Shown one piece after another: positions 2,301 through 30,935 of a stretch of DNA of 64,000 nucleotides. A model generated the notes under the pieces. That model was not told the DNA's origin, made no database searches, and worked only from the letters and a program-made list of their open reading frames with translations. Position 1 is the first letter of the stretch, and each line of letters opens with the position of its first letter. Source of the DNA: Candidatus Magasanikiibacteriota bacterium (GTDB taxonomy: Bacteria; Patescibacteriota; Patescibacteriia; Magasanikbacterales; GWA2-37-8); assembly GCA_017991415.1 (NCBI GenBank), contig JAGOQR010000002.1:97109-161108 (forward strand), in the 5' to 3' direction. Made by a program: the position numbers and the translations under genes.

Positions 2301-2306
2301 ATTAAT

Positions 2307-3341: not shown

Positions 3342-3349
3342 TATAGTTT

Positions 3350-4876: not shown

Positions 4877-4878
4877 GT

Positions 4879-13797: not shown

Positions 13798-15669
13798 TTA
13801 CTGTGTTTGTTTTTCAAATTCTTTTTTAGAACGCTCTATCTCTAAGAGCTGCTCTGGATTAGTAGTAACTAATTGATCCTCGGTATAGGAAGCAACAACC
13901 TTAATGGCCGCATGCTTATTACCAGCAAAGAAAATACCTTCCCCCACTCCACTCTCTAATAATAAGTATTTTTCTCCTTCTGTAAGAATAAATACTTTTT
14001 GCACCAAATCAATGGCTGCTGGAGACTGACGCAACAACAATTGCAAAGCAGAGTTAGTCACAATCGCTTGGCCGTACTGAGATTTAAGAAAATCGTTTAC
14101 ATCCTGAGTAATAGTTGTGACACCAAGATAATATTTACGGGCTCGTTTAACAAGCGCAAAAATAAACCTAGCACTATCTTCATGCTGCATCAACCACCAG
14201 GCCTCGTCGATCACCAGGATTCTTTTTTTACGCTCAGAACGAACTACATTCCAAATGTAATTTATAATTGCATAAATTGCCATTGGACGTAGCTCATCCT
14301 CCAAATCACGGACACTGAAAACTACTAACTGATTTTTCATGTCCACATTAGTTGGCGAGTTGAAAAGTCCGCTAAACGTACCTTCAGTATATTTTTTTAA
14401 TCGCAAGACCAAATCTCCAGAACCTTCCATACCTTCTAAAATTTCTTGCAGGTCTTGGATTATTGGCGGCTGCACCAGGCTTAAGTCAGCTTCGGGAGTA
14501 ATATCTTTTTTGGCATACGTTTCAATGAGAGCCCGATCTATAATCGAGTCTTGCTCCGTAGTAAGATTGCCCAACATAATGCGCAGCAAACCTTTGACAG
14601 TTATGACTGCTCCACGAATAATGTCTTCGGTAGAAAAATCTTCGCCACCAGTAGGTCTTGGTAAATCAAAAGGGTTTACCTTACTTTCTGAAGAAAGAGA
14701 GATATTAATATATGTTCCTCCAACAGCGTCGGCTAAATGCTTGTACTCCATTTCAGGGTCAATCACAATTACATCTACACCCATCATCATAGAACGTAAA
14801 ATTTCTAGTTTTATGGTATAACTTTTTCCCGCACCAGATGTAGCAAACACGGCCATATTAGCATTCTGGAGAGAAAATCTATCAAATAAAATAAGGCTGT
14901 TGTTGTGGCGATTAACGCCATACAAAATTCCATCATCGGAGGTAAGTTCGGCAGAAGTGAACGGAAACGAAGCTGCAATTGGCGAAGAATTAAGATTGAA
15001 CGAGACCATAAGCTCGTCGTTAGCGAGTGGTAACGTAGAATTAAACCCTTGCTCTGCCTGATACAAAACTTTACGACTAGTAATTAGCTTGGAGCCAAAA
15101 ATATTTTCAACATCTTCCGAAGTTTGATCAAGTTCTTCTTTAGTTTTGGCATACAAAGTGACATAAAAAGCAAACTGAAAGAAATGCTCTATGCCCTGGG
15201 TAAGATCGTCGCGCAGCTGCTCTATGTCGCGCAACGCTGTTTCACGGACCGGATCACGCGGCGCTCCTTTTTCGGAATCAGCGGTGAGCTGAGCTTCCAA
15301 GGCACCTACTTTATTTCTTAATTGCTTTAAAATTACAGCGGATTTTACAGGATAAAAAAACATACTCACATCCATAGTAATGGACAAGTTGAGCACTGGA
15401 GAGCTCCAACCAATAGAAATATACCTTGGATATGTCACGATAAAAATAGTGCGACAAAAAATATCTCCTAATTTTACAAAGTTTGATTCTACATTAAAGG
15501 CAGATGGCGCTAACAAATCTTTGATGGAAACCGTGCCCTCACGATACACCCGCTCCTCTTCCAGGGTTACGAGCTCCTCGGTTGATTTTTTAGCAATTTC
15601 CTCTTCTTTACTTGCCAAGACTCCCTTTTGTTTTACAGAGCCTGTGGCAAATTTTGGTTTAAAAGCCAT
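13798..15669 (-). CDS. VirB4/TraC/PrgJ-like type IV secretion or conjugation ATPase
   Basis: Walker A AVFATSGAGKSYT. Walker B with the VirB4-family signature RILVIDEAWWLM (DEAW). Size 623 aa. Adjacent PrgI/VirB3-like gene. Confidence 0.8.
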   Translation of the reverse strand: MAFKPKFATGSVKQKGVLASKEEEIAKKSTEELVTLEEERVYREGTVSIKDLLAPSAFNVESNFVKLGDIFCRTIFIVTYPRYISIGWSSPVLNLSITMDVSMFFYPVKSAVILKQLRNKVGALEAQLTADSEKGAPRDPVRETALRDIEQLRDDLTQGIEHFFQFAFYVTLYAKTKEELDQTSEDVENIFGSKLITSRKVLYQAEQGFNSTLPLANDELMVSFNLNSSPIAASFPFTSAELTSDDGILYGVNRHNNSLILFDRFSLQNANMAVFATSGAGKSYTIKLEILRSMMMGVDVIVIDPEMEYKHLADAVGGTYINISLSSESKVNPFDLPRPTGGEDFSTEDIIRGAVITVKGLLRIMLGNLTTEQDSIIDRALIETYAKKDITPEADLSLVQPPIIQDLQEILEGMEGSGDLVLRLKKYTEGTFSGLFNSPTNVDMKNQLVVFSVRDLEDELRPMAIYAIINYIWNVVRSERKKRILVIDEAWWLMQHEDSARFIFALVKRARKYYLGVTTITQDVNDFLKSQYGQAIVTNSALQLLLRQSPAAIDLVQKVFILTEGEKYLLLESGVGEGIFFAGNKHAAIKVVASYTEDQLVTTNPEQLLEIERSKKEFEKQTQ

Positions 15670-17995: not shown

Positions 17996-18973
17996 TTACT
18001 CTTTCCATTTAAATTTATCGTCTTCTTCGTCATAATAAATCATGTCAGCAATTTTTGGATCATTATACATTTCGGTAAACTCCTCCAACTTGCGCATTAC
18101 CCCCTCTATATTTTCAAAATTTCCCTCTGCGTCTTTTTTAAACTCGGATTCTATTTGTGATTTTATTTCTTGAGGGGTTAGGGGTTCTTCACTACTACCA
18201 ACAACCACATCAGACTCCGAATCAACGGGGCTTTCTTCGGGCAACAACTGCTCAATTGTAATATTTTCTATTTCGTCAGCCTGATCTGCTGATGGCAGAG
18301 TTTGATTCTCCAACTGTTCCGGATTTAAAAATAAATCTACTACAAACCAAATTTTTTCAATATCTATTACTTGAAAAAATTCAATTAGTTCTAAAAATCT
18401 GTTTACACCTACATCTGGATCTGTGTATGTATAGATAAGAGCTTCTTTAGGAAAAAGAATTTGTCTTATTTTACTAATAAGCTCAGCTTCCTCTATAGAA
18501 GAGGCCCTTCTTTTTTGCATCAATATATACTCAGATACCAAATCTTTTAGTATTATTTTTTTTCCTTGCCATAATCCTAAAGACTCCTCGGATTGTAAAA
18601 ATGCCGTTTGAATCTTGAGATAAAAAGCTTGAGTATCCTGTTTATCTAAAGTTCGAAAACCTAAATACCACATCAATGATTCTAGAACAGAATAATTATT
18701 AAACAAAGCCATTGGTACTTGTTGAATAAAAGCGGTTATCACATCCTCTTTAGACAGAGAGTTCAGATTTTTCCAAGTTAGCTCTACATACCATTTCCAA
18801 TAAGTAAATTTAAAAGCCTCCCGCTGCTCTGCCGACACAACAGAAAAATAATCTCTCATTTCTTTCCAAAGGGAATTAGAGGTATTAATATCAGAAATAA
18901 TCCTCTGAAATTCAAGTTCTTTCTGTTTAACCTCTTCAATTGTTAAATTTTTTTTATCAAAAAACATATTCAA
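17996..18973 (-). CDS. hypothetical acidic protein (T4SS-like cluster)
   Basis: 325-aa ORF with a very acidic C-terminus. Tight spacing with neighbours: its stop at 17996 is 16 nt from the next start at 17980. Confidence 0.4.
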   Translation of the reverse strand: MNMFFDKKNLTIEEVKQKELEFQRIISDINTSNSLWKEMRDYFSVVSAEQREAFKFTYWKWYVELTWKNLNSLSKEDVITAFIQQVPMALFNNYSVLESLMWYLGFRTLDKQDTQAFYLKIQTAFLQSEESLGLWQGKKIILKDLVSEYILMQKRRASSIEEAELISKIRQILFPKEALIYTYTDPDVGVNRFLELIEFFQVIDIEKIWFVVDLFLNPEQLENQTLPSADQADEIENITIEQLLPEESPVDSESDVVVGSSEEPLTPQEIKSQIESEFKKDAEGNFENIEGVMRKLEEFTEMYNDPKIADMIYYDEEDDKFKWKE

Positions 18974-21900
18974 TTATGGCAGATTTTTTATCTTATCCAA
19001 TAATTCACTTGCTCTGGCGTCGAACCTATCCTTAGCATTTTTATCAGTCAATACTTTACTAATTTCATTTAAAAGATTCTCGTACTCAGCTTTATTAGTA
19101 GAATTAACATCCGCATTATTCAAAGAACTAAAGAAACCATTCTGCATCTGCGATATAAATAAATCATTTTTACCTTGGAATATAGCCGCAAGCTGCTCTG
19201 CTCTTTTTGAATCAAAGCCCACAATTTGATTCTCAACATTTATTTTTGCATACCCATTGGCTGTAATCCACTTTCTGTGATCAGCTTCAGCAATTTTGGT
19301 AGGATAAAAACCAGACCCCACATTTATTTCTCCAGTATTAACCGTTTTGGTAGCCTGATCATACTGCCCAAAAAATCTTTCCAACTGACCGGAACTAGTT
19401 CTTCTATCGCCTACCAAACCAAATAGCGCACCCGCACCTTTCATACCGGCACTCTTATTCGCATTACTATATAATGTTAAAGCACCTTGAGCTTTTTCGA
19501 TTCCACCAAAAGCATCATATACTTTCTTAGCAGCAAGGGTTTCGTCACCCGCCATAACAACCCTGCCTAAAATTTTACTTAATTCAGCTCTGATACGATT
19601 AGTATCATCAATGACTTCTGTCCAACCAATGGTCTTTAGAGATTCACTATCCCCAAGTTCCGCCGCTTCTTTACCTTCAGATTTGAGGGCTGTTTGTAGT
19701 GCCATGTTTCGTTGAATAGTTTTATTTTTAATCTGCTCTAGACGTTTGACTTCATCTGGTTTGTTAGCTGTACTCGCTGCAGCTATATCAACCTCTAACT
19801 GCTGAATTTTTAATGGCATAGCTTTTAATGCAAAGGTTTTATCTTCCCAACTCATTGCAGAAACTCTATCACTTTCTCTTTTTGCTGTTTTAGATTGAAT
19901 CTCGGCCAAAACTTGATTGGCTCTTAAATCATCACCCATCTTCCTAAATGATTTAGCGCGCTGCTCAGCTTCGGCTTCTTCTTTTGAAATATCAAAATCT
20001 TCTTTTATGTTTGCAGTTTGAGCTTTGGTGAAGTTTATAATTTCCTGAGTTTTTGCACCTTTGCCTTCTAATAATTTTTTTATTTGCTTTAACTCTTCAA
20101 GCTCTTTTTCTGCACGTAATTTTTCATCTAACTGCTTTGACGCCGCCTCTTCTTTTGCTGCCTTATGTTCCAAAGTATGACCTAGTCCAGTTTGAAGTAA
20201 TTTTTCTTTTGTCTCTAACCTATGACGCTCTTCTTCCGCATGCAAGGCATGTTTGGTTAAATCGGCTTTTTCTCCAGCCTCTAAAGCCCTCTTACTTCTG
20301 CTTTGATCAAATATTTGCGCTCGGCTAAACTTTCCAGATTTTGCCAATTCCTCAGGAGTTTTACCCACCTTAAGCTCTGCTGCAATTTCATTACTTGCAT
20401 CATTAAACTTCTTATAGAAAGTTTCTAATTTTTCTTTTTTAATATTGGACCCTGTTTCCTCTAATTTATGTAGTCTGGCCTCGGCCTCTGTCTTAAACTT
20501 TCCTATAGGCGTTTTGCTTGTACTTACCAAATGCTCAAGTTGCTCATGAGCATACTCTGCCCCTGATTCTGCATCTTTTGTGTACTCTTCTTTAAAAGCA
20601 GCTGGCGCGAACCATAAAGCCATGCGCGCCAAAGCCCTCGTATTGCCTGCAAAAGACTTTTTTAATTCTGTCTTTCCATTTTTGTCTGTATCAACTTCAT
20701 AGCCATTATCCTGCAACTGCTTACTGTAATTCTCTATAGCACTGTCATCATGACTAGCCACCGCAGCATTACGGAGAGCAACTAATTTTTGAATCTCTGG
20801 ATGTTCTTTTGATAAATCTTTGACCTTTTCTTTACCGTAAGCTTTATTAATATTTTCTCCAGCTTTATAAAGTCTTGGCTCTACCCACTTCTTTGAATAC
20901 CACTTAGACGCAGCAGCTTTAATTCTCCTACCTCTTCTATTCCACTCATCACCACCAACAATAGGAGCTTTCATTAAAGCAAATTTACCTGCAGCTTTGG
21001 CACCCTCTCCAACCTTACCCGCAGTCCATCTAGCAGCTTGTAGACCAGAGGCGTACATTGCCACTTTCTTACCCAACTCTCCAGCACTTCCCATCATAGA
21101 ACCACCCGCAACTCCTAATTCTTGGGCCATTTTTGCACCAGCAAGAAGCATGGCAATAGCGATTATAAAATTGGCCATTTTGTCCCAACTCATTATTTTG
21201 GTAATACCAACAGTTTCTTCTTCGGCTGTGCCTGATTGCAATAATTGATCTTTTTGTAAGGCGTTATGTTTTACAATGTCGTCGTGAATAGTTCCAGAAC
21301 CAACCGTTACAAAAGAAAGCCACAGAAAAAAAGCAATGACCGGACCAGACACGACATTACTACCAAATTGATGCCACCAATCGTGGGCATATTTTTCGGT
21401 TTGATGTAATACATTGAGGACAAATGCCAAAGGAGATAACACGATAAGCACCCAAAGCATGGCCATGCGAGCTACGATTAAAAACAAAAAGGCAAGCATG
21501 GTAACGAGCATGATAACTGAGAAAGTAATAGAGGCCACAGCCGCCACAAAAGTGACACTGGCACTGCCTGTTGTCCCCTGGCCTGCAGCTAACGCAAAAA
21601 TTTGATCTACCTGGAACATGTTAACCAGATTTCCGCTGGCAGTAGCAGCAATACCATTTACAAAGGTAACCATGACAATCTGTGCAATATCGATAATAAG
21701 ACCACAAATTACACGGCTAAAATTGACAAGTACGGCGGCTATAAGTAATTTTACCAGTAAGTGCTTATATTCGTATTGTTCTATTCCTAAAATAGTGCCG
21801 AATGCAATCATAAGCAGCACAACTACAAAGAACATATTGGTCATGTCGCGAATCATCACCCAACCTACCGTAACAGCCGGAGAGTCTATAAACCCGTTAT

Positions 21901-22165
21901 ACCCTGCAACCTCGATAATAAACTTGAGCACGAAAAAAGTGAGCTTGATAAAAAACCCAGCCAGTGCTAACAAAACAGAAGCAAAAAAATTCATGAGATC
22001 CTCGCCGATACCAGCATGAGCAGTAGGGGTAAAAATCAACCAGGCAGAGATAATAATACTAGACAGAACAACAATACTAACCAAACCTAATTTTTTTCGG
22101 GGACGAAAAAAATCCCAGCCTTTGCTAAGTATCAAGGTAAATGTGCTTTCAAGTTTCGCAAACAT
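18974..22165 (-). CDS. VirB6/TrbL-like polytopic membrane protein with about 700-aa K/E-rich coiled-coil C-terminal extension
   Basis: The N-terminal 330 aa or so contain 7-8 TM helices in a TrbL/VirB6-like arrangement. The remainder is lysine/glutamate-rich and predicted coiled coil. It is the first gene of the minus-strand T4SS-like operon. Confidence 0.55.
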   Translation of the reverse strand: MFAKLESTFTLILSKGWDFFRPRKKLGLVSIVVLSSIIISAWLIFTPTAHAGIGEDLMNFFASVLLALAGFFIKLTFFVLKFIIEVAGYNGFIDSPAVTVGWVMIRDMTNMFFVVVLLMIAFGTILGIEQYEYKHLLVKLLIAAVLVNFSRVICGLIIDIAQIVMVTFVNGIAATASGNLVNMFQVDQIFALAAGQGTTGSASVTFVAAVASITFSVIMLVTMLAFLFLIVARMAMLWVLIVLSPLAFVLNVLHQTEKYAHDWWHQFGSNVVSGPVIAFFLWLSFVTVGSGTIHDDIVKHNALQKDQLLQSGTAEEETVGITKIMSWDKMANFIIAIAMLLAGAKMAQELGVAGGSMMGSAGELGKKVAMYASGLQAARWTAGKVGEGAKAAGKFALMKAPIVGGDEWNRRGRRIKAAASKWYSKKWVEPRLYKAGENINKAYGKEKVKDLSKEHPEIQKLVALRNAAVASHDDSAIENYSKQLQDNGYEVDTDKNGKTELKKSFAGNTRALARMALWFAPAAFKEEYTKDAESGAEYAHEQLEHLVSTSKTPIGKFKTEAEARLHKLEETGSNIKKEKLETFYKKFNDASNEIAAELKVGKTPEELAKSGKFSRAQIFDQSRSKRALEAGEKADLTKHALHAEEERHRLETKEKLLQTGLGHTLEHKAAKEEAASKQLDEKLRAEKELEELKQIKKLLEGKGAKTQEIINFTKAQTANIKEDFDISKEEAEAEQRAKSFRKMGDDLRANQVLAEIQSKTAKRESDRVSAMSWEDKTFALKAMPLKIQQLEVDIAAASTANKPDEVKRLEQIKNKTIQRNMALQTALKSEGKEAAELGDSESLKTIGWTEVIDDTNRIRAELSKILGRVVMAGDETLAAKKVYDAFGGIEKAQGALTLYSNANKSAGMKGAGALFGLVGDRRTSSGQLERFFGQYDQATKTVNTGEINVGSGFYPTKIAEADHRKWITANGYAKINVENQIVGFDSKRAEQLAAIFQGKNDLFISQMQNGFFSSLNNADVNSTNKAEYENLLNEISKVLTDKNAKDRFDARASELLDKIKNLP

Positions 22166-22450
22166 TTTCTAGCAATTATGTTAAACTAATTGTACCATAT
22201 TTTAACTGAATCAACAATTAGATTTAGGTATATAAAATTGGGGTGTGGATAAAAAATAGCATTATTTTTACGATATAAAAAATTTTCATCGCACTACCCC
22301 TTGTACAAAATAATTATAAGTGTGTATACTAAATATAAGAGATGTAAAGTAAAAAATATAACTGATTTTTTAAGCAAAATGAATAATTAAATCTGGATTT
22401 AAAGAATTTGTTCAATTTGCTTAAAATAACAGACGTAGACGCTTTTGGGA

Positions 22451-22479
22451 TTGACAAAAGCCCCGAAAAAGCGTATAAT
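22451..22479 (+). promoter_or_regulatory. Perfect sigma70 consensus promoter TTGACA-17 nt-TATAAT pointing toward the GC-rich island
   Basis: TTGACA at 22451-22456. 17-nt spacer. TATAAT at 22474-22479. Orientation is rightward, toward the ORF at 22697. Confidence 0.5.
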
Positions 22480-22696
22480 ACGACGTTATTGCAAAATAAC
22501 CGCTCCTTACAACGTGCCAAGATTAGCAAAACTGCTAATTTTAGCCAAAATATGATGATGGAATAATTTGACCTAGCTGATAGGCGCAAAGATCTGGGCT
22601 GATACTTACCCCGCTCAAACGAGGTAGTTACAAGCTCAGACTCTAAACCCTGTCTCTAATGTCGCGTGAGCGACTGTTCAACCCCTGGAGGATCCC

Positions 22697-23227
22697 ATGC
22701 GCATCGCCCTCTCGTCTCTTGCCCTCGCCCTGGCCCTCATCGGCTGTACCGACCCCGACGTCAACATCGTCGACGGCGGACCCACGCCGGACGGACCCAA
22801 GCTCGACGCGGAGACCACCGAGGTCGACGCGGGCATCGACGCTCCGGGTGACATCTGCTTGTCGCTCGGTACTCCGCCGGAGGGCGCCTACCTCCTTGGG
22901 GAGGGGTCACGCAGCTGGCGTTGCGGCTTCTCGGCAGCACCGGGAAATCACAACACCTTCGCAATCGCCGCAGGTACGGACTGGATGTGCTCGAGCATCC
23001 GAGTCGAACCGACCACGACGGCCCAGGGTCCCGCCTGCCTGGTTTCCTGTATGGATGCCTCTGGCAACACCATGGACCAGCTCAGCAACACGGACTACCG
23101 TGAGCTGACCGTGGAGCGAGCCGGGGCTACCATGCCGTACAGGTTCTACTACGGCATCCCCGGAACGCCGCCCGCAGAGGCAGAGTTTGTCTGCCACGAC
23201 CCGGCAACGGTGCCATTTCCATCGTGA
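22697..23227 (+). CDS. Putative lipoprotein encoded in a high-GC foreign island
   Basis: 176-aa ORF. GGAGG lies 6 nt before the ATG. Signal peptide with lipobox LALALALIG-C. GC3-rich codons (GCC, CTC, GAC, ACC and so on) are unlike every other gene in the window. Followed by a GC hairpin. Confidence 0.6.
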   Translation: MRIALSSLALALALIGCTDPDVNIVDGGPTPDGPKLDAETTEVDAGIDAPGDICLSLGTPPEGAYLLGEGSRSWRCGFSAAPGNHNTFAIAAGTDWMCSSIRVEPTTTAQGPACLVSCMDASGNTMDQLSNTDYRELTVERAGATMPYRFYYGIPGTPPAEAEFVCHDPATVPFPS

Positions 23228-23248
23228 ACTGTCACGACCCATCATCAC

Positions 23249-23277
23249 GGCAGCCGAACCATCGCGGTTCGGCTGCC
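23249..23277 (+). terminator. Perfect 12-bp GC-rich hairpin (GGCAGCCGAACC-atcgc-GGTTCGGCTGCC) downstream of the island ORF
   Basis: Perfect inverted repeat with no T-tract. This is the high-GC-organism style of terminator or REP-like element. Confidence 0.45.
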
Positions 23278-23317
23278 ACCCTCAACTTAATAGAAAAAAA
23301 TTTTCTCTTGAGTAGAA

Positions 23318-23349
23318 CAAAAAATCTCCTTTTTATAGGAGATTTTTTG
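23318..23349 (-). terminator. Rho-independent terminator of the giant-protein gene
   Basis: AAATCTCCT-ttttat-AGGAGATTT hairpin flanked by A/T runs, immediately downstream (minus strand) of the stop at 23367. Confidence 0.6.
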
Positions 23350-23366
23350 TTTTTTATAAATTATTA

Positions 23367-26300
23367 CTAGTTATTTGGAGGCACAATTATTCTTCCACTA
23401 AATGTAGAAAACGGACCTTCAGGCAATTCACATTCATTCGCATAACAGTTAGACACTCCTGGACTTGCAAAACCACCACATGACCCGTTGCAATAACCCC
23501 AGTTATCTTTTAGCTGTACTTTTGGCTGGAACACACAACAACCGCCAGACAACGATTGTGTTTGTGCATCTGGACAGCTATCTGTCCAACCATTGCCTCC
23601 GCGAAGACATTGATAGACGTGGTCAAATCGGAAATAAGCTGAGTCACATGTTTTTCCTAAAATCTGACCAAAGTTTTGAGCTTTACTTTCGGCAAAACAG
23701 TTATCCAGGTACATACAATCTGTATTGGAGGCGCATGTTTTTCCTGTGTTAAGATCGTAGACTCCTGGTGTCGAAGAAGCAACCATACAAGTACCAGATG
23801 AACCACATCGGCCATTTACTGCCCCGCGCTGATTACGGAAATAACCATCCAAAGATACAACGCTCGTATCTCCCCAATCTAATTTAATTTTCTTAATCGG
23901 CATTTGATTTTTATCTGCAAAGCCAAAGAACTTTGCATTTACCAACGCGATATTAGTATTAAACAAAATATCTCCAGAAGATTTATCATTAATAGACATA
24001 CCAGTTATAGTACTTTCTAAACATTTACCGCCAGGTTTACAGCTTCCCAAAGCCATAGCCTTGGGGACTGGGTTAGCAAAAGAATCAGTAAAATTATATG
24101 GCCGCACCACAGTAGCAGAATCAGTACCTGGAGCAGTGGTTCGAACATAGGCCCAAGAAGTACCTGTAGGTACCCAATTCCAGACACTGTCTATTTTCGC
24201 AAAAATTTGAGCAAAACTACTTTTTGCTTGTGCAATTGATTTTTGGCTTGCCGGACCATTTACTGTTTCATTAGGAGACGGGCTTGTCTTTAAACAATCT
24301 CCGCCACAGCTATATGGTGAACCAAAGATTGCAGGAGGTAAAGATGGTGTAGGTTCACTATAATGGCTAAAAATACTAATGAGTGTTTCTGGTACAAGCG
24401 GAGTAAACATTCCCAAGCTGCCAAATGGCACATTTTGTAAAGAATTTTTATATGCCAATGTTCCTGGGTCGATTACATAGCTACTCCTACTCCACAGTCT
24501 ATCTGTCCAACCAATACTTGAGTATGGATTATCTTCGGTTTGAGCAATATTAAGACACGTTTCTCGCAAACCTACATTCAATGTAAACGAAGCAGACTCA
24601 GTATCACCCGCATCACCTGAAAAACAGGTTAAATTTATCCTATCCAACCTACCGTCCGAATTAAACACAGTTCTAATTGCACAACCATCATCATTGTCGT
24701 CTATATCTCCTCCCAAACAAATATCTTGATAATTATCATTACCCGCAACATCTATACTACCAGCACAATTTGATAATAAATCTTTAAACTGCTCTCCCTG
24801 TATACCGGCAGTATTAGGATCAGCATACTGGTAATGATTATTTCCATCACCCTCACCATCATCATACCGCATATACCAAAAATTTTTATCACGACCATCG
24901 GACCATACATACTTGCCAACATTCAATCCACCAGCTTCACCGACAAATACTTGCGGGTTATTTAAAATTGTTTCTTCAGATCCGTCTCGTTTTACCACCT
25001 GCATCTGAGAATTATACTTGGTAATATATCCATTTCTAATAAAAAATTTATTGGTACCGTTTGGAAACCAGTCACTATTACCGGTTGCTGCAATCATTAT
25101 ATAGTCAATCTCATCTCTATATATAGGCGTATTAACATTCAATGTTATTACGCGTTTTTCACGGCTATTTGATCCGTGACCAGCCGCACTAACCACTGAT
25201 TGCTGTCCAATCAGCTTATCATACGTAACAATGTCTGAGCCTACTATATTGACTACAGTTTGATTGCCTCTGGCTCCTAGACAATAATACTTACCAGATG
25301 CATCATTTGCTTGGAAACCAGCTTCAACGTGTTGATTGTTAATATCAAAAGCACCAGTAATATTATCTTTAGGGAACCAAGTAAGACATGCAAAAAGGTT
25401 TTGTTCGGCATTAAGAAGACGAGAAAAATCTGGCTCGATACAATAACCCTGCCAACCAATAAGACGTGATTGTTTTCTGACTTTTTGACAACTACCGTTT
25501 GTACAGTCTGCATCAGAGCTACAAACCTTATCTGCATTAACACCCCCCATACAAATACCCGGAACAACACTCTTTACGACTTGATTATTTTTATCCAAAA
25601 TACCCTCACTATTAGGACTATTAAAATTCCAATACTTAGCAAGCGAATCACCATACGTTACTTTGGTATAGTTACAATCACAACTATTTGCTTTATCGAT
25701 ATCTGTAGTAAAACCACTTGCTTCATTACATGTATTAACAGAATCAAACGTTACTGAATTTCCTACAGCCTCACTGTTTGGGAAAGGTGAAGTCTCTTCT
25801 GGGTATGCGCGACAAGAAGCAGGAAGTGATTGTCTTGAAACACCCGACAAAGAACTATCTAAATTCTGAACACATACTGGATTAGTGGCTCCAAGACAAA
25901 CACCAATATCACTGCGACCACAGGACTGGCCAATACTTCCTGGCGCACAAATTGGACTCAATGGATTAGCAGTACAATTTGACCCCGTGCCACACGCTAA
26001 TGTTTTTGCCAAACGCCATTCTGGAAGAGAGGCCGTGCCAATATTTACCTCGGAGAGCTCTTCTACTGGAAAGGCATTAAAGATGCTGTAACCACTGAAG
26101 TCTTGGCCTTTCCATTCGATGCTACGATTGCGATATGCATTATCGGTTAAGACTTGACCGCTTAACTCATGCGCATTATCAAGCCAATTAGCACAGTTAA
26201 TAATATCGCCAGTTGACCCAGAAGAAAAAGCCTGATTACAGCGACCAATAGCATCACAGACCTCTTTATAACTACCAGTCTGAGTATCAAAAACTCTATG

Positions 26301-29300
26301 AGAAGAACGGCACTGGAGCCACTCTCCACATTCTCTATCACGAGTTACTTTCAAAATTATATTTGCATCACTTGGTGTTGAACCAGAACCGGCTACCGGT
26401 GCTACAAGCCCATTATTTACTGCCGCACTAGCGGCATAAGATTTTTCTGTACTCCATAATTTATTTGGTAAATCAGTTTTATCAAGAAGAATACAACCAG
26501 ATTTTTCACTCACTTCACCATTACACTCATTTTGATGAGACTTTAATTTATCATCATTAATAAGATAATATGTTTTGTTATTCTGGTTGCGATCTATAAA
26601 CTCCGAACAACCACTTTGCACCTGCGGACACTCACCCACAAAATTATTATACGAACTAGAAACACCATATGACCAGAGACCATAACTGTTTCCAGATTGT
26701 AAATAGTTTGGATAGCACGGCTGCTCGTCTTTATTCTGACAGGTGGCACCTGCGGCACAGTCACTGTCGGTTGAACAGAAACCTGAAGCAGACGAACCAT
26801 TTGTAACACACTTTCCAACACCTTTCCAAAACCAACCGCTATATTTAACACCGTCTTTTGTTACGTTATCTTTGTATGCACAAACTTTTTGGCCAAGATA
26901 CTCTGGATCTTTAAAATACAATGCCCCATCGCCAGATGAATATGAGTTACAACCAACTGCCTCACTCTGACAAAGAGTAGTGTTAAACGTGGCGGGATCT
27001 TTTTTAACTAAAACATCTGCATATGAAGGACCGGTAGCAGTTTGTACTAATTTTCCAGCTTTTATACAACCCAAATCTACTGCATTACAAGTTGATTCTT
27101 TATTGGCAACCAAATAAATAGGCGTTGAGGTTGGAGTGTCAGGCTGAACAAAAATTGTAGAAGAAACTACCCGTGCGCCAGCACTGGTAATAGCAGCCAG
27201 AGTTGCCCCAACAACATTTACATAACAACCCGACTGCCCGATAGTAACCTGACAAGTGTACGCGGTACCAGCAATTGTTCTGCTTGCAGCACTACCTTCT
27301 GCGCCAGATAACCAAACATTGTATGCACGTGAAGTAGTTTCGTCTGGAGTATTATAAGTATCATACACAGCTGTACAGCCGATAGCTTTTTCTCTACACA
27401 AAGATGTAAACCCAGTGAGATACATTGGTCTATTGTCTGGTGTTTTGTACTCAGAACAGCCAAGAGATTCTCCTGGTAGATTGTCGTTTAAATTACTATC
27501 ACAGATAGGATCAACTTTTAAAGTGTTCTTAACTAAATAAATATAGTCAGTTACTTCTTTGAGACTCACATTATCTAGGAACAAACGTCCGTTGCTTTGG
27601 AATTTTAATCTGGTACTTGAAGCTGTACCGCCTAATTCTACTGGACCAAGATGGTAGCTCTGCCAAACATCACCCACACTCACGGTACCAAGAGTAGATA
27701 CTTCGTTATTTTCAAGAGAAACAGTAATGGTTTCGCCAGCAGAGCCTTTGGCCCAGAAAGTTAGATCGTAGCTTGCACCAGGATTAAGGGTTACATTTTT
27801 ATATACTTCTCCCCCACCACTATATGACAAGGAATGCTCTCCTGCATGAGTTGATTCTAATGACTGGGTTACGTTTGCCGAAGGAGCCCAGTTAGCCAGA
27901 GCATCAGAAACAATAGCTTGCTCAAAATTATTACTGAATACATTACGAACATTATTGCCTGAATTTCCTTTATAGGCTCGGCATGTATTTACCGAAGCTG
28001 CACAGGTTTTACTTGTGCCTGCAGTATTAGCAGCGCCACCTGGTAAACCGTAGTAAAAACATTGACCATCACGATATTCTCCACCTTGAGGACAAACTTG
28101 ACAATTATTAGCAGCACTGTCCCATAAACCTTTTTGTAACTCACATTTATCAAAAGACAAGGCAACTGTTTCTAGCTCCGTATCATTTAACCTGTATGGC
28201 ACACAAGCATTGGAAACAGCAATAGTTTTGGAGAGCAACCTGTAATATACAGCACCTTGATCATCATTAAATTGTCGACAATCTGGACTAGCTAAACCTT
28301 GTTTATATAATGTTTCATTACAAATTTCATCGTAATTCTCGAGGGAGCCGCTCGTACGATAGAAATATTTTGGACCACCATCGACTGGATTTTTTTCTAG
28401 AACAAATGCCTTTAATTGGAAACCGCCCACCGAAGATCCTTCGTATGTATAGAAGTTTTTTTGTTTGGTATTATCTGGCAAAATACAAGGACGCAAATAT
28501 GAAAAATGTTCGGTTGTTTCTAAGCCGTTAGTAGTAGCACTTAAATTTGTAAAGCTAGCACACCCCTCGTCTACTGAGCTACATTTTGCTCCTGAAGATG
28601 GAATGACATACGCGACAGATTGTCCAATAGAATAATTACTTGGCATTTCTCTATAGGCAGCATAACCAACACATTTCTTATCACACTGGTCATTCCAGAC
28701 AATTTGATTTTCAACAATTGAAGCTGGTGTAAATTTACCTGGGATACGGTCTCCTGTATAACTACTTGGTTGATACCAATTACAGTTTACTTCATCTGGA
28801 ATACAAGCTTGAGAATAATTACTGCATGCTGGATTTGTCTGCAAACTATTTAAGTCACTAACAGTTTGAGGCCAATCAATTGCAAGCGTCGTTGGATTAG
28901 TATCGTAACACTTGGAGTAATATGGGGCTTTACGCAAATAGAGATTCTGCGATGTGCTGACTGTTTTAAATGCCGAACAACCATCTGAATTTGCTGAACA
29001 ATTGGTTGAAAGCTTGCTATTGAAATAGATAGCCGAATTTTCTCCTACACTACTTAGATCATCTGGAGAATAGCCAGTCCACTTACCTGAATTATCTTGT
29101 TTTAAACTATACTGAGCACAACCAACTGTTTCTTGATTACAAAAACCAGTATCCAAAGAACGGTATAAATAACTAACATTTTTACCAGAACTATCCTGGA
29201 AAGACTGACAGGTTCTAAACTGAGAATCACATTTTGCAGCATCTATTTTCCAAACATTTTTTTCTCTGGTGCAATATCCTTGTGTGGCACAATTACCATC

Positions 29301-30935
29301 TTTATCATAAGCCACACAAGTAGTCATATCTACACACTCCTGAGAACGATTAGCTGTTCCTGGAAAAGATGGAGATGAGCCGTATGCAACAAAATTACAT
29401 TTTGATGGCGGTGCTTTAATTACCCACTCTGGATCAATAAGATGACAGAACGGTTTGTTAACTGGATCATTTTCAACTCCCACCACTTTACCATTCGCAT
29501 CTTTGATAAAATTACAATCATCAAACCCATCAATAACTTGTTTTAGAGTCCACGGCTTATCTGGATTACTATTAAGGACAGCAATTTCAAAACCAAGTGG
29601 CAAAATTCTCGCTTTGCGTAATTTAGCAATATTAGCATAACAGTACGCGCGTTGATGACAGGTTGGATCGGTATTATCAGCGGTTCGATCTGGAGAGATA
29701 AGTTTCCATTCTCCGTGCAACCAATTTTTTTCTAAAGCCTCTGCCACTGTAATAGACTTACCAGAATTTATTTCTTGGGCAGCTTGAGCCAAACCAGCAT
29801 CAGCCACACAATTATCTGGGCTTGGATTGGAAGGGCAGTTAGTAAAATTAAGCAAGGTATTATACTGATCGACTACTATATTAGGCGGCGTAAGCAGATC
29901 ACTAAATAAAGCTTGGGCAGCTTGACGCCCCCCTCGAGAAACCTGACCTTCTAGATTATTGAGCGTGTCTTGTAATGTATTACACTGACCAATCACACCA
30001 GCCACACAACCACCGATTGGTAGCACACCTTTATTTTGCCAATTTTTGAGAACTTGTGAAGCAAGTGTATTTAAAAATAAACTGCCGGCGCTTGCAATAC
30101 TACCTACTGCACCTGTACTAAGCGTGGCTAAAAATCCCGCTTCAGCTTTGTTGGCTTGCTCGCTCGGATTTTGCGACTGCGCTTCTTCTTTGATATTTGC
30201 TGCAGGGATAGTTATCTGATTAGAGATAAGAGTAGTTTTTGGATTATATCCTTCTCCTTCTTGGCGCTGCAATTTTTCAGCTTCAGTTTGTTGAGCAACG
30301 TAATTATTAATTTTTTCTGTTGCGCTCATTAGAATTCCAACATCGGTCTGCTCTACGGAAAAAGCCACATTAAATTTTCGAGCAATATCATCGCTTGAAC
30401 CAAACTGGCTCTGCCAGTTACTGGCGTTTAAAACATTGTTGTTAAACTCAGACCAAGTACACGTTGGTTTACGAACCCCTTGAGTCTGCGTATTTAAACC
30501 TGGGTTTAAATCCATGAATTTATAAGTAAGACCAATACGCATGGCGAGGTCTATTTTTGGATCTGGAATTTTACAAAGGTTTAAACCATATGGAGAACCT
30601 AAAGCTTCGATTGCTACGCCCGCAGCATTGTTGCCCACATCCTTCATATAACTACCAAAATCTTTGTATTGAGCAAACGGTGTTTGCCCTTTTCCACCCG
30701 AAGCCATCCAGACAGCTGTATCGTATGCAATACGACGTAAAAAATATGAAAAAGATTGAATAGCAATATTTACACCCGCAGTTTTTATAAAACGTTCGGC
30801 AAGGGCTGTAAAATCAGAAACAATTTCTACGGGAAACGCTTGTGCTGGCTTTACATATAAAAAAGAACCACCTATGGTCACAAACGTAAATATGGTAAGT
30901 AAAATTTTTAGTCCAAACTTTTTATATGTTGACAT
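23367..30935 (-). CDS. Giant (2522 aa) cysteine-rich secreted or surface protein
   Basis: Single uninterrupted ORF. N-terminal signal or anchor (LKILLTIFTFVTIGGSFLYVKPAQA). Very high Cys content throughout, including many CxxC-like pairs. G/S/T/N-rich. No catalytic motifs recognised. Confidence 0.8.
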   Translation of the reverse strand: MSTYKKFGLKILLTIFTFVTIGGSFLYVKPAQAFPVEIVSDFTALAERFIKTAGVNIAIQSFSYFLRRIAYDTAVWMASGGKGQTPFAQYKDFGSYMKDVGNNAAGVAIEALGSPYGLNLCKIPDPKIDLAMRIGLTYKFMDLNPGLNTQTQGVRKPTCTWSEFNNNVLNASNWQSQFGSSDDIARKFNVAFSVEQTDVGILMSATEKINNYVAQQTEAEKLQRQEGEGYNPKTTLISNQITIPAANIKEEAQSQNPSEQANKAEAGFLATLSTGAVGSIASAGSLFLNTLASQVLKNWQNKGVLPIGGCVAGVIGQCNTLQDTLNNLEGQVSRGGRQAAQALFSDLLTPPNIVVDQYNTLLNFTNCPSNPSPDNCVADAGLAQAAQEINSGKSITVAEALEKNWLHGEWKLISPDRTADNTDPTCHQRAYCYANIAKLRKARILPLGFEIAVLNSNPDKPWTLKQVIDGFDDCNFIKDANGKVVGVENDPVNKPFCHLIDPEWVIKAPPSKCNFVAYGSSPSFPGTANRSQECVDMTTCVAYDKDGNCATQGYCTREKNVWKIDAAKCDSQFRTCQSFQDSSGKNVSYLYRSLDTGFCNQETVGCAQYSLKQDNSGKWTGYSPDDLSSVGENSAIYFNSKLSTNCSANSDGCSAFKTVSTSQNLYLRKAPYYSKCYDTNPTTLAIDWPQTVSDLNSLQTNPACSNYSQACIPDEVNCNWYQPSSYTGDRIPGKFTPASIVENQIVWNDQCDKKCVGYAAYREMPSNYSIGQSVAYVIPSSGAKCSSVDEGCASFTNLSATTNGLETTEHFSYLRPCILPDNTKQKNFYTYEGSSVGGFQLKAFVLEKNPVDGGPKYFYRTSGSLENYDEICNETLYKQGLASPDCRQFNDDQGAVYYRLLSKTIAVSNACVPYRLNDTELETVALSFDKCELQKGLWDSAANNCQVCPQGGEYRDGQCFYYGLPGGAANTAGTSKTCAASVNTCRAYKGNSGNNVRNVFSNNFEQAIVSDALANWAPSANVTQSLESTHAGEHSLSYSGGGEVYKNVTLNPGASYDLTFWAKGSAGETITVSLENNEVSTLGTVSVGDVWQSYHLGPVELGGTASSTRLKFQSNGRLFLDNVSLKEVTDYIYLVKNTLKVDPICDSNLNDNLPGESLGCSEYKTPDNRPMYLTGFTSLCREKAIGCTAVYDTYNTPDETTSRAYNVWLSGAEGSAASRTIAGTAYTCQVTIGQSGCYVNVVGATLAAITSAGARVVSSTIFVQPDTPTSTPIYLVANKESTCNAVDLGCIKAGKLVQTATGPSYADVLVKKDPATFNTTLCQSEAVGCNSYSSGDGALYFKDPEYLGQKVCAYKDNVTKDGVKYSGWFWKGVGKCVTNGSSASGFCSTDSDCAAGATCQNKDEQPCYPNYLQSGNSYGLWSYGVSSSYNNFVGECPQVQSGCSEFIDRNQNNKTYYLINDDKLKSHQNECNGEVSEKSGCILLDKTDLPNKLWSTEKSYAASAAVNNGLVAPVAGSGSTPSDANIILKVTRDRECGEWLQCRSSHRVFDTQTGSYKEVCDAIGRCNQAFSSGSTGDIINCANWLDNAHELSGQVLTDNAYRNRSIEWKGQDFSGYSIFNAFPVEELSEVNIGTASLPEWRLAKTLACGTGSNCTANPLSPICAPGSIGQSCGRSDIGVCLGATNPVCVQNLDSSLSGVSRQSLPASCRAYPEETSPFPNSEAVGNSVTFDSVNTCNEASGFTTDIDKANSCDCNYTKVTYGDSLAKYWNFNSPNSEGILDKNNQVVKSVVPGICMGGVNADKVCSSDADCTNGSCQKVRKQSRLIGWQGYCIEPDFSRLLNAEQNLFACLTWFPKDNITGAFDINNQHVEAGFQANDASGKYYCLGARGNQTVVNIVGSDIVTYDKLIGQQSVVSAAGHGSNSREKRVITLNVNTPIYRDEIDYIMIAATGNSDWFPNGTNKFFIRNGYITKYNSQMQVVKRDGSEETILNNPQVFVGEAGGLNVGKYVWSDGRDKNFWYMRYDDGEGDGNNHYQYADPNTAGIQGEQFKDLLSNCAGSIDVAGNDNYQDICLGGDIDDNDDGCAIRTVFNSDGRLDRINLTCFSGDAGDTESASFTLNVGLRETCLNIAQTEDNPYSSIGWTDRLWSRSSYVIDPGTLAYKNSLQNVPFGSLGMFTPLVPETLISIFSHYSEPTPSLPPAIFGSPYSCGGDCLKTSPSPNETVNGPASQKSIAQAKSSFAQIFAKIDSVWNWVPTGTSWAYVRTTAPGTDSATVVRPYNFTDSFANPVPKAMALGSCKPGGKCLESTITGMSINDKSSGDILFNTNIALVNAKFFGFADKNQMPIKKIKLDWGDTSVVSLDGYFRNQRGAVNGRCGSSGTCMVASSTPGVYDLNTGKTCASNTDCMYLDNCFAESKAQNFGQILGKTCDSAYFRFDHVYQCLRGGNGWTDSCPDAQTQSLSGGCCVFQPKVQLKDNWGYCNGSCGGFASPGVSNCYANECELPEGPFSTFSGRIIVPPNN

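Follow-up and report, generated by a model that had tools for sequence, protein, structure and literature searches.

How does a single gene in the chromosome of an AT-rich bacterium come to look like a piece of a GC-rich genome, and is such a gene foreign, an artefact of assembly, or native? The question is raised by a short island in the window, by which we mean the whole 64-kb stretch of Candidatus Magasanikbacteria DNA that represents the source genome in this analysis. Positions 22600-23290 form the sole stretch above 52% GC across these 64 kb: 200-nt windows from 22600 to 23299 have a GC of 0.60-0.70, those on both sides lie at 0.23-0.40, and no 200-nt window outside the island exceeds 0.52. 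The original prediction had seen here the strongest compositional anomaly of the window, which windowed GC and GC3 bear out; the background, which it had put at about one third G+C, was measured at about 0.38.

A GC-rich lipoprotein gene and its signals

The ORF that fills most of the island (GC1/2/3 = 0.61/0.57/0.785) stands 14 SD away from the 41 other window ORFs of at least 150 aa, whose GC3 is 0.308 ± 0.034 with a maximum of 0.382. GC1 and GC2 are raised as well as GC3, and the adjacent parts of the UTRs share the high GC of the gene. The codon style is that of a genome of about 65% GC (GC3>GC1>GC2, C3>G3), pooled third positions (C.52/T.11, G.31/A.07) showing about equal bias in Y-ending and R-ending codons, and the encoded proteins are rich in Ala, Gly, Pro, Asp and Thr and poor in Lys (1.8% vs 9.2%). 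The GC-rich zone is confined within the transcript; upstream, GC climbs from about 22600, while the 3′ edge is sharp, falling from 0.62 to 0.29 within 100 nt without a gradient. We agree with the earlier view that the additional overlapping ORFs in other frames are an artefact of high GC.

The island had been described as a self-contained lipoprotein gene with its own ribosome binding site, lipobox and 3′ hairpin, and we confirmed all of these (Table 1). Two details needed correction, since the 176 aa given for the mature part are those of the precursor, the mature part having 160 aa, and the GGAGG lies 5 nt rather than 6 nt before the ATG. The protein is identical to the NCBI hypothetical protein KBC69_03010 (Candidatus Magasanikbacteria). 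Its N-terminus, MRIALSSLALALAL-IG-C17, fits the lipobox pattern [LVI][ASTVI][GAS]C, both lipobox and signal peptide being called by pattern inspection. A signal peptide with lipobox occurs in the same frame and orientation in 12/12 of the loci first compared, and a lipobox in every GC-rich syntenic gene examined, including further loci beyond these 12. The conservation of this frame, together with a dN/dS of about 0.3 for the gene, indicates that the gene model is right. Behind the acidic, Pro/Gly-rich tether, AF2 models a beta domain at residues 65-170 (pLDDT about 70-84), residues 1-64 being disordered. Domain types A and B have a common Cys framework (hhalign 97.5%), and representatives of all five domain types have no match in Pfam, NCBIfam, PHROGs or PADLOC. 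The window ORFs that were scanned, a subset of all those present, include no Lgt or LspA. The idea that new domain types arise by frameshift was rejected, as alternative-frame translations match no real island protein at E<0.01.

Table 1. Features of the lipoprotein locus and its neighbours, in window coordinates
Feature	Position	Strand	Remarks
VirB4-like ATPase of T4SS-like operon	13798-15669		
1063-aa polytopic membrane protein, putative 'VirB6-like'	18974..22165	-	first gene of T4SS-like operon
Sigma-70-type promoter TTGACA-17-TATAAT	22451..22479	+	12/12 match; about 217 nt upstream of ATG
Conserved 5′ leader, about 210 nt	22480..22696	+	conserved blocks and hairpins
Leader hairpin GTTAT..ATAAC	22485-22500	+	
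Leader hairpin GCCAAGATTAGCA..TGCTAATTTTAGC	22516-22545	+	
Covarying leader stem-loop CTGGGCTGATAcTTaCCcCG ... CGaGGTAGTTAcaAGCTCAG	22594..22639	+	RNAalifold
Small GC hairpin GTCGC-GTGA-GCGAC	22661..22674	+	just upstream of RBS
Shine-Dalgarno GGAGG	22687..22691	+	5 nt before ATG; GGAG(R) in other loci
Lipoprotein precursor gene, 176 aa	22697..23227	+	GC 0.655, GC3 0.785
Signal peptide	residues 1-16 of precursor	+	pattern inspection
Lipobox Cys17	22745-22747	+	L-I-G-C17
D/P/G-rich disordered linker	Cys17 to about residue 53	+	
Cys-rich all-beta domain	about residues 54-176, 22856-23224	+	
Hypervariable module, codon 49 to just before 3′ hairpin	22841..23240	+	divergent allele in L001
Perfect 12-bp GC hairpin, 3′ UTR, without T-tract	23249..23277	+	arms 23249-23260/23266-23277
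Sequence-conserved AT-rich 3′-UTR hairpin ACTTAATAGAAAA...TTTTCTCTTGAGT	23285..23313	+	
Bidirectional intrinsic T-tract terminator AACAAAAAATCTCCT / AGGAGATTTTTTGTT	23316..23351	.	15 nt, 100% complementary
Giant Cys-rich protein gene, 2522 aa, CBM_4_9 domain	23367..30935	-	convergent to lipoprotein gene

The signals around the gene are also found in its relatives. A promoter matching the consensus at 9-12 of 12 positions is found at the corresponding position of each of the 12 loci and is kept in the alignment with the sister genome L001. The leader, whose 5′ half is AT-rich, contains the conserved blocks CGCTCyTTACAA and TTAGCCAAA. Its main stem-loop has 18 pairs, 11 of them with compensatory double changes (RNAalifold), and the covariance model R1 gave one match per locus, always this stem-loop (22587-22646 in the window, 56 bits), with no second copy in the window. 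An Rfam search of 21800-23800 at a relaxed threshold returned only terminator-like noise, and no family matches the leader. Most loci have a hairpin of the GTCGCC..GGCGAC type before the ribosome binding site. At the 3′ end, the pairing of the 12-bp GC hairpin is kept in L001 through an A-T to C-G double change, and every locus has a strong GC hairpin at the equivalent place, though of differing sequence. This hairpin had been taken for a terminator lacking a T-tract; it is indeed perfect, but it is not the last 3′ element, since the AT-rich hairpin and then a T-tract terminator follow downstream. The latter serves the lipoprotein gene as well as the giant gene convergent to it, and its stems covary among loci. 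The covarying leader hairpin and the 3′ elements are thus common to the 12 closest loci.

The island lies, as had been stated, between a T4SS-like operon, which also includes PrgI/TraC-like genes, and the giant-protein gene. The VirB6-like gene, transcribed divergently, adjoins the lipoprotein gene in every locus; its product has no Pfam or NCBIfam match, and this protein too has a hypervariable portion, the C-terminal 360 aa or so (about 18974-20068). The giant gene, mosaic between close genomes, is the other constant neighbour. The surroundings are core chromosome (Suf, KsgA, RF1, GroEL, YidC, NusA), and no integrase, transposase, tRNA or meaningful flanking or direct repeat was found at the island borders or in the window.

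Distribution in relatives and the question of origin

A GC-rich lipoprotein gene (GC 0.57-0.70, GC3 0.72-0.91) with a native promoter close to consensus occupies the same site in at least 20 independent related genomes, the conserved arrangement and the GC peak being present in L001, L003-L012 (10 GTDB-species loci), 8 metagenome loci and L043-L047. The synteny holds where the neighbouring VirB6-like protein is 48-77% identical; some related lineages have an intermediate GC3 of 0.55-0.61, and relatives further removed do not keep this gene order and have no such gene at the site. Conservation across the Magasanikbacteria clade therefore extends to the gene itself, to its orientation and to the regulatory elements, and a comparison that had been proposed, with syntenic relatives lacking the insert, instead met related genomes that carry the gene at the orthologous site.

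An assembly chimera, a contaminant read or an engineered insert had been offered as explanations, and the abrupt compositional edges as well as a GGATCC site just before the ATG could be read in that way. However, an independent Logan contig (L002) is 100% identical across both island junctions, and more than 20 assemblies, made in unrelated studies and with different assemblers, show the same architecture. The GGATCC site is missing in L001, and native conserved regulatory elements both flank the unit and lie inside it, so that we give an artefact or an insertion practically no credence.

The same observations bear on a very recent horizontal acquisition, not yet ameliorated, from a high-GC donor (Myxococcota or Actinobacteria-like). 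Such a transfer, also proposed originally, would account for codon usage and amino-acid makeup resembling those of a genome of about 65% GC. It is contradicted by synteny in relatives down to 48% VirB6-like identity, by the graded GC3 of some lineages, by the absence of integrase, tRNA and flanking repeats, and by the substitution balance described below. Nor did we find a donor: HMMER with type A against 1.84e9 representative proteins yielded only 4 real matches, all of the same kind, profile searches of 5.8e9 proteins gave 6 clusters for type A and 8 for type B, and neither collection held a homologue outside the clade. We thus regard recent transfer as extremely unlikely. An ancient transfer into the ancestor of the clade may have occurred, and would leave the maintenance of GC unexplained. 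Our literature search found no account of Magasanikbacteria lipoproteins, or of GC-rich hypervariable lipoproteins in AT-rich genomes.

Allele exchange and the maintenance of high GC

When L001 was compared with the window, the module from codon 49 onward showed a dS of 1.05, a dN of 0.34 and indels, against a flank dS of about 0.09, and in close genomes generally the dS of the lipoprotein domain is 1.05 or higher against the same flank value. In three close genome pairs the N-termini of the VirB6-like protein are more than 95% identical while the lipoprotein domains differ, and in all three the VirB6-like C-terminus has been swapped too. Divergence between close genomes amounts to 12-18% in the island but 0.3-3% in the T4SS genes, and mosaicism is evident in the alleles P0013, P0014 and P0015. 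The differences comprise indels and all types of substitution and are not adenine-specific. The folded domain is hence a hypervariable module, represented by old, functionally constrained allelic lineages built on one cysteine framework, and strains trade alleles through homologous recombination, the breakpoints lying in the linker and in the 3′ UTR. Three samples yielded the loci L044, L045 and L046, which share 99.8-99.95% identity and encode the same lipoprotein; this argues against rapid switching within a lineage.

The joint swapping of both modules, and the adjacency of the divergent lipoprotein and VirB6-like genes in every locus, could mean that the lipoprotein is a T4SS partner, either cognate to the VirB6-like C-terminus, as TraS/Eex is to TraG, or a structural lipoprotein resembling VirB7. 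As in the VirB7 and TraG-TraS/Eex cases, a small, fast-evolving lipoprotein lies in a T4SS locus beside a VirB6/TraG-like protein, and TraG-like and VirB6-like polytopic proteins alike have a polymorphic C-terminal domain. VirB7 has indeed been described as a small, fast-evolving lipoprotein (PMC12102498). Yet VirB7 binds VirB9 in the outer-membrane core complex, whereas the T4SS of Patescibacteria are of the monoderm type without a VirB7/9/10 core complex (PMC12102498); the likeness is limited to locus position and fast evolution, and neither the sequence nor the fold of the island lipoprotein was found to resemble a known component. Moreover, lipoprotein types are uncorrelated with VirB6-like C-terminus types. 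One C-terminus type (window, L003 and L012; 63-75% identity) occurs with lipoprotein types A, D and B, and another (L006 and L008) with types A and E. The idea of a cognate pair was rejected on this independent assortment, and a partnership of either sort, which addresses function only and leaves the GC unexplained, appears to us quite improbable.

We then asked whether the high GC is decaying. Polarised changes in the island are balanced (AT→GC 41 vs GC→AT 43). At third positions, 16 AT→GC against 21 GC→AT changes fell on 25 AT and 154 GC sites, a per-site ratio of 4.7 that implies an equilibrium GC3 of 0.82, compared with 0.86 observed. The T4SS flank, by contrast, has a ratio of 0.53 (equilibrium GC 0.35) and the giant gene one of 0.87, and the flanks sit at their own compositional equilibrium. 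Binomial p is 7e-8 for all sites and 6e-9 for third positions; the further close locus pairs available for polarising were duplicates only (L013 = L005, L015 = L008). Alleles separated by a dS of 1 or more still have a GC3 of 0.8-0.9. This substitutional equilibrium at high GC means that active maintenance, and not the gradual loss of a foreign signal, accounts for the composition.

As to what maintains it, the controls are the hypervariable VirB6-like C-terminus, with a GC3 of 0.27-0.39, patches of the giant gene at 23-32% divergence, with a GC of 0.36-0.42, and GroEL, whose GC3 is ordinary and on whose account codon bias due to high expression was rejected as the cause of the island's GC. 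Neither recombination or hypervariability nor high expression as such yields high GC in Magasanikbacteria genomes. These controls also weigh on the possibility that GC rises passively, through GC-biased gene conversion or a locus-specific GC-biased repair or mutation driven by frequent recombination. Recombination at the lipoprotein gene is frequent, all codon positions and the adjacent non-coding sequence are affected, the equal bias of Y- and R-ending codons is expected under a compositional force but not under a tRNA-driven one, and such conversion would give the same equilibrium signature as observed. However, the VirB6-like C-terminus and giant-gene patches, which lie within a few kb and recombine and diverge to an equal degree, keep a normal or low GC, the 3′ edge drops without a gradient, and the effects of biased conversion described in bacteria amount to a few GC3 points and not 50. 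Although several observations fit it, we judge a passive rise of this kind to be fairly unlikely.

Selection on RNA structure offers another route. Compared with synonymous shuffles, the lipoprotein coding sequences fold with a mean z of -3.2 (L008, -10.6) as opposed to -0.6 for native genes. Only about half of the alleles show a strong excess, z being near 0 in L003, L004 and L010 despite a GC of 0.60-0.66, and the antisense strand, with a mean z of -2.8, is almost as strongly folded as the sense strand. A folding excess so patchy and strand-symmetric cannot explain the GC alone, nor does it prove a target at the RNA level, and mRNA structure was rejected as the sole cause.

It could also be supposed that the gene is adapted to being expressed in a partner cell of high GC, to which its DNA or mRNA would be delivered by the T4SS-like machine in the style of Agrobacterium T-DNA. 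Codon and amino-acid usage like that of a genome of about 65% GC, a universal-consensus promoter, a strong Shine-Dalgarno sequence, a GC hairpin without a T-tract and the position directly beside the T4SS would all suit this idea, as would the essential role of the T4SS in the epibiotic lifestyle of a cultured relative (PMC12102498). Most T4SS clusters of Patescibacteria, however, have no relaxase, the system being thought repurposed, possibly for import; no relaxase or oriT-like feature was found in the window, and both the long structured leader and the T-tract terminator of the gene are native. Delivery to a partner cell is accordingly a reading that we hold to be scarcely credible.

The explanation we prefer, and which we consider reasonably probable, is that the island is a native, vertically conserved and fast-diversifying surface-lipoprotein gene of Magasanikbacteria, a group of ultra-small CPR bacteria, that is actively kept at about 65% G+C, presumably by selection on the nucleic acid. 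Its product would be a small secreted lipoprotein, in which a signal peptide ending in a lipobox is followed by an acidic tether rich in Pro and Gly and by a disulfide-rich beta domain, expressed from its own predicted very strong promoter and structured leader between the T4SS-like operon and the giant gene. It would act as a cell-surface specificity determinant at the interface of symbiont and host (or phage), under diversifying or frequency-dependent selection, with the T4SS-like machine or the giant protein as its probable partner. The weakest step in this explanation is the last one, that selection acting on the transcript's nucleic acid would keep the GC high; our favoured guess for the target is an unusually stable, structured and A/U-poor mRNA enclosed between protective 5′ and 3′ GC hairpins.

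Known systems and the meaning of the island

The closest parallel we found is the vls locus of Borrelia, whose G+C of 49.1% against a background of about 28.6% led its authors to infer 'strong selective pressure' (PMC11499132). Like the island, vls encodes a hypervariable surface lipoprotein in an AT-rich genome, with a G+C far above background across species, a GC contrast of similar size in points and variation through recombination of segments. The island could then be the expression site of a vls-like system of antigenic variation, in which anomalous GC promotes segmental conversion from silent cassettes. In favour of this are the excess of about 25 GC points over background, the mosaic alleles and the many inverted repeats in several of them. 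The vls locus, however, is a contiguous array of silent cassettes with unidirectional conversion within one cell line, a positive GC skew (0.52) and coding-strand G-runs. The coding strand of the island gene has a skew of -0.16 to +0.01, G4 motifs number 0 in the island alleles, and C-runs equal or exceed G-runs in most of them. No silent copy was seen in the window, in the locus flanks or in the protein searches: neither the 64-kb window nor the 10-20 kb around any locus contains a further GC-rich segment, and 5.8e9 predicted proteins yield full-length single genes only, with no cassette-like fragments. Variation is found between strains and not within a lineage, L044, L045 and L046 having an identical protein, the GC3 reaches up to 0.91, and the proteins are unrelated. 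A vls-like mechanism is thus very unlikely. The two loci considered together suggest that anomalous GC may recur at diversifying surface-lipoprotein loci of AT-rich bacteria.

Other systems share fewer traits with the island. The lpp and ompA genes of E. coli combine a strong promoter and an abundant envelope protein or lipoprotein with a stable, base-paired mRNA protected by 5′ and 3′ stem-loops. They resemble the island gene, whose transcript may be similarly abundant and stable, in encoding a small envelope protein under a strong promoter, but they are neither compositional outliers nor hypervariable. Diversity-generating retroelements (DGRs) are common in CPR bacteria, and their targets likewise carry the variable region at the C-terminus of a surface protein, with a GC-rich hairpin behind it. 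Here, no reverse transcriptase was found among the scanned window ORFs and no template repeat in the window; the changes include indels and show no adenine specificity, and dN/dS is about 0.3 with dS saturated. An integron cassette is at odds with the lack of an integrase and with 3′ hairpins that, on inspection, share no core motif among loci. A classical genomic island would show the same sharp compositional discontinuity around a complete gene; this one, however, is syntenic across a deep clade, has a stationary composition and comes without mobility genes, tRNA, direct repeats or a donor.

Compositional islands are routinely read as signs of HGT or contamination. As its 25-point GC excess is native, ancient and at equilibrium, the island provides a clean counter-example to this reading, and it amounts to a natural experiment on what holds base composition against genome-wide mutational pressure. 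It could be, although we think it unlikely, that the locus reveals a GC-favouring diversification or repair specific to one CPR surface-protein gene, or an unusual selection that keeps its transcript GC-rich. If true, the mechanism would differ from DGRs, vls-type cassette conversion and genome-wide GC-biased gene conversion alike, and the hypervariability of a host-interface lipoprotein would be coupled to an inverted base composition. CPR bacteria, or Patescibacteria, depend on host cells, and the T4SS-like machine is essential for this lifestyle in one cultured model. The lipoprotein is therefore a concrete candidate for a determinant of host range or strain specificity, and one that could be tracked in metagenomes by its composition.

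The GC-rich lipoprotein gene and its conserved setting

In 200-nt windows, the GC content of positions 22600-23299 is 0.60-0.70 against 0.23-0.45 in the surroundings, and nowhere else in the 64 kb does it exceed 0.52, so that the striking GC island of the original prediction is real and unique in the window. GC1, GC2 and GC3 of its lipoprotein ORF are 0.61, 0.57 and 0.785, while GC3 in the other long ORFs (n = 41) is 0.308 ± 0.034 (maximum 0.382). The predicted gene model was also correct, with lipobox, GGAGG and perfect 12-bp hairpin all confirmed, and only details changed: the ribosome-binding site lies 5 nt rather than 6 nt before the ATG, the 176 amino acids are the precursor and not the mature part, and the GC hairpin, taken for the 3′ terminator, is not the last element, since an AT-rich hairpin and a T-tract terminator lie downstream.

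Features of the lipoprotein transcription unit and of other genes in the window ("12 loci" is the basic comparison set)
Feature	Position	Strand	Remarks
Peptide-modification-like cluster	1227-7236		
ComFC-like gene	12539-13198		phosphoribosyltransferase domain, double zinc ribbon
VirB4-like ATPase	13798-15669		
325-aa gene	17996-18973		next after VirB6-like gene
VirB6-like gene	18974-22165	-	1063-aa membrane protein; last ~360 aa, 18974-20068
Promoter TTGACA-17-TATAAT	22451-22479	+	perfect; near-consensus in 12 loci (9-12/12 positions matched)
Structured conserved 5′ leader	22480-22696		~210 nt; 150-340 nt in 12 loci
Leader stem-loop	22594-22639		18 predicted pairs, 11 with compensatory double changes
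Small GC hairpin			directly before GGAG ribosome-binding site in 12 loci
Shine-Dalgarno GGAGG	22687-22691	+	
Lipoprotein ORF	22697-23227	+	GC-rich in 12 loci
Lipobox …LALIG-C17		+	sequence inspection of ORF
Strong GC hairpin	23249-23277	+	3′ of coding sequence; sequence variable in 12 loci
AT-rich hairpin	23285-23313		sequence-conserved, CTTAAyAGAA…TTCTyTTGAG
Bidirectional T-tract terminator	23316-23351	both	stems covary in 12 loci
Giant gene	23367-30935	-	2522 aa, Cys-rich, CBM_4_9 domain

The order promoter, leader, small GC hairpin, coding sequence, strong GC hairpin, AT-rich hairpin and terminator is common to 12/12 loci of the basic set. As these regulatory elements are conserved, the lipoprotein gene is embedded in native conserved regulatory sequence. 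The core of the leader stem-loop is conserved in sequence (GATAATTGCTCCG...CGAGGTAGTTATC), its covariance model found exactly one match per locus and none elsewhere in the window, and no Rfam family matches the leader; the stem-loop may be a new cis-regulatory RNA. In the 3′ UTR, the variable GC hairpin and the terminator flank the AT-rich hairpin, whose sequence is better conserved than that of the coding region over 11 loci; it could serve as a binding site for a protein or an sRNA, or belong to an sRNA derived from the 3′ UTR. Over about 43 kb of the window (12500-55800) every gene except the lipoprotein gene is on the - strand; the orientation of the lipoprotein gene is the same in all loci. 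Since the + strand GC skew is negative throughout the window, this lone + strand gene may be a strongly promoted head-on (lagging-strand) gene.

The island had been explained as a chimeric or contaminant join, an engineered insertion or a very recent acquisition from a high-GC donor. The first is refuted by an independent 1402-bp Logan contig with 100% identity across both island junctions, and by the sister genome (L001), where the gene order is as in the window, the flanks are 95-97% identical and the GC peak is also found. Engineering is untenable as well, since the GGATCC before the window ATG is not kept in the sister genome and the 3′ hairpin retains its pairing there through an A-T to C-G double change. 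Recent transfer is contradicted by synteny in relatives and by the lack of any donor lineage in the protein collections: HMMER, run exhaustively against 1.84 billion representative proteins, returned only 4 true relatives, all of the same kind, and profile searches of 5.8 billion proteins returned 6 clusters of domain type A and 8 of type B. A protein identical to the window lipoprotein and annotated as hypothetical is found in a Candidatus Magasanikbacteria MAG. The window is core chromosome (Suf genes, KsgA, RF1, TsaC, GroEL, YidC, NusA), and no integrase, transposase or reverse transcriptase was found among the ORFs scanned.

When GTDB species representatives were searched with the N-terminus of the neighbouring VirB6-like protein, 10 loci were obtained at 65-73% identity. 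All ten have a GC peak of 0.60-0.76 at the equivalent place and a same-orientation ORF of 126-207 aa (GC 0.60-0.70, GC3 0.73-0.91) encoding a signal peptide with lipobox, a D/P/G-rich linker and a Cys-containing domain. Pooled third positions of island genes are C 0.52, G 0.31, T 0.11 and A 0.07, those of native genes A 0.31, T 0.40, C 0.14 and G 0.15. A metagenome scan gave 30 more loci; GC-rich lipoprotein genes occur down to 48% neighbour identity (L014, L016, L020, L024, L033, L034, L035), GC3 is intermediate (0.55-0.61) in three lineages (L018, L032, L040), and in several distant lineages the gene is missing from the site, where synteny is disrupted. In L043-L047 the order is PrgI, two genes, a 1058-aa gene, the divergent lipoprotein gene and the convergent giant gene. 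The island is thus a native conserved syntenic gene, neither artefact nor engineered nor recently transferred.

Eight of the GTDB-representative records (L004, L006-L012; TPA assemblies) are titled 'uncultured Gammaproteobacteria bacterium' despite their Magasanikbacteria-type locus, apparently a labelling fault of the source records. In a relative of 29% GC (L027), the equivalent region, some 100-400 nt before the VirB6-like gene, holds ~70-nt tandem repeats (…GGGTGACAATGAGAGGGATCCTTCAATTCTTCAGGATGACAGTGGTGGGGA…) of ~50% GC and no lipoprotein gene.

Allelic exchange at the locus

Between the window and the sister genome, the promoter, leader and first 48 codons are near-identical, whereas strong divergence, including indels, begins at codon 49 and ends shortly before the 3′ hairpin. 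By the Nei-Gojobori method, dS and dN are 0.10 and 0 in the first 40 codons, 0.085 and 0.004 in the VirB6-like N-terminus, and 1.05 and 0.34 in the mature domain of the lipoprotein. Recombination has therefore brought the domain in from an allelic lineage of long standing, and hypermutation in place is rejected; the domain is under purifying selection. The pairs L006/L009 and L003/L004 have neighbour N-termini more than 95% identical and different lipoprotein domains, with breakpoints in the linker. In L043/L044 the island differs by 12-18% and the T4SS genes by 0.3-3%, and the alleles P0013, P0014 and P0015 are mosaics of one another. Sequence clustering gave five domain types, A to E. Since A and B match in profile-profile comparison (97.5% probability), with an alignment that reaches into the domain and a shared cysteine framework ending C-x-[VLAF]-x-C, and since this motif is visible in all types, the types are deep lineages of one family. 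Frameshift-driven novelty of the domain was rejected.

The VirB6-like protein is 100% identical to that of the sister genome over ~700 aa, then drops to 16-42% identity over the last ~360 aa, with no more than 45% identity in the 325-aa product of the next gene. L006/L009 and L003/L004 show the same sudden switch. The C-terminus types, of normal GC3, have been shuffled between species without regard to phylogeny or lipoprotein type, so that the T4SS locus has a further hypervariable module. The giant gene is a mosaic between close genomes, with alternating patches of 0% and 23-32% divergence in L043/L044 (6800-12546) and 87% overall identity between window and sister genome, against 97% for the T4SS genes.

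Base composition at equilibrium

Substitutions were polarised with three alleles ~80% identical (L043, L044, L047), for which each 2:1 site of the three-taxon star tree is a change on one terminal branch; flanks were analysed likewise with L006 as outgroup. The island coding sequence has 41 AT→GC and 43 GC→AT changes, of which 16 and 21 are at third positions, on 25 AT and 154 GC sites, hence the third-position values tabulated below. The AT→GC excess over flank expectation is highly significant (p = 7e-8 for all sites, 6e-9 for third positions).

Substitution flux and equilibrium GC (GC3 for third positions)
Region	AT→GC:GC→AT per site	Implied equilibrium	Actual
T4SS genes	0.53	0.35	0.39
Giant gene	0.87	0.46	0.43
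Island CDS, all positions	1.78	0.64	0.65
Island CDS, third positions	4.7	0.82	0.86

As the implied equilibria lie near the actual values, each region is stationary at its own composition. By our own two-state calculation under the genomic bias, a GC3 of ~0.85 should have fallen to ~0.55 at a dS of ~1, which is not observed. The GC content of the island is actively maintained, and the inverted base composition of the gene family is kept at equilibrium by a gene-specific force.

Several candidates for this force were rejected. Hypervariability or recombination as such fails because the VirB6-like C-terminal 350-650 aa, swapped in the same genome pairs, have GC3 of 0.27-0.39, and the divergent giant-gene patches (23-32%) have GC of 0.36-0.42. 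High expression as such fails on the ordinary GC3 of GroEL, and tRNA-driven codon choice on the near-equal preferences for C over T and G over A and on the raised GC1 and GC2. The encoded protein is poor in Lys and rich in Pro, Asp and Thr.

The transcript encloses the GC-rich zone, whose end is abrupt (0.62 to 0.29 within 100 nt), and GC-rich hairpins flank both the ribosome-binding site and the stop codon. Island coding sequences form more stable folds than their synonymous-codon shuffles, with a mean z of -3.2 (L008 -10.6, L011 -5.6, L006 -5.4, window -3.2) as compared with -0.6 in native genes. Selection would then act on an exceptionally stable, A/U-poor mRNA of the lipoprotein gene. Because the folding excess is absent in L003, L004 and L010 and almost as strong on the antisense strand, it supports but does not prove such selection, whose main rival is a locus-specific GC-biased repair or conversion process. 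Some alleles (L008 9077-9472, which equals L015, and the L006, L009 and L011 islands) are nearly a chain of near-perfect GC palindromes within coding sequence, with an MFE of -284 kcal/mol over 396 nt in the L008 island; other alleles have none of this pattern.

A probable surface lipoprotein beside a T4SS-like operon

Profile libraries and a fold search did not recognise the lipoprotein, for which AF2 models a disordered tether (residues 1-64) and, at moderate confidence, an all-beta domain. A surface-exposed specificity factor at a cell-cell (or phage) interface is suggested by several features: the lipid anchor, flexible acidic tether and disulfide-rich domain, the very strong promoter, the constant location of the gene between the T4SS-like operon and that of a giant CBM-containing surface protein, and the exchange of old alleles among strains. 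Lipoprotein types and VirB6-like C-terminus types assort independently of each other, which gives no support to a simple cognate pair. The T4SS of Patescibacteria is of the monoderm conjugative type, usually without relaxase, is frequently found close to KsgA and oriC, and may import macromolecules; epibiotic growth of the cultured model depends on it (PMC12102498). The ComFC-like gene directly adjoins the T4SS-like operon, placing a competence-type protein beside a secretion machine proposed to import macromolecules. Elsewhere in the window, a cluster of ATP-grasp proteins, a 7TM-transglutaminase-associated protein with PKD domain and an ATP-grasp/MATCAP-like peptidase fusion resembles a peptide-modification module.

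No published description of the lipoprotein locus was found in the literature. The closest known case is Borrelia vls, a variable surface lipoprotein locus of 49% GC in a 28.6% GC genome (PMC11499132), with GC held far above the genome as at the island. However, a vls-like DNA design was rejected, as the island is without GC skew, G-runs or G4 motifs, and neither silent copies nor a cassette array occur in any sequence available (window, locus flanks, protein collections); the island is therefore an analogue and not a member. A native gene family with inverted base composition at equilibrium is more interesting than the transfer, chimera or engineering first proposed.
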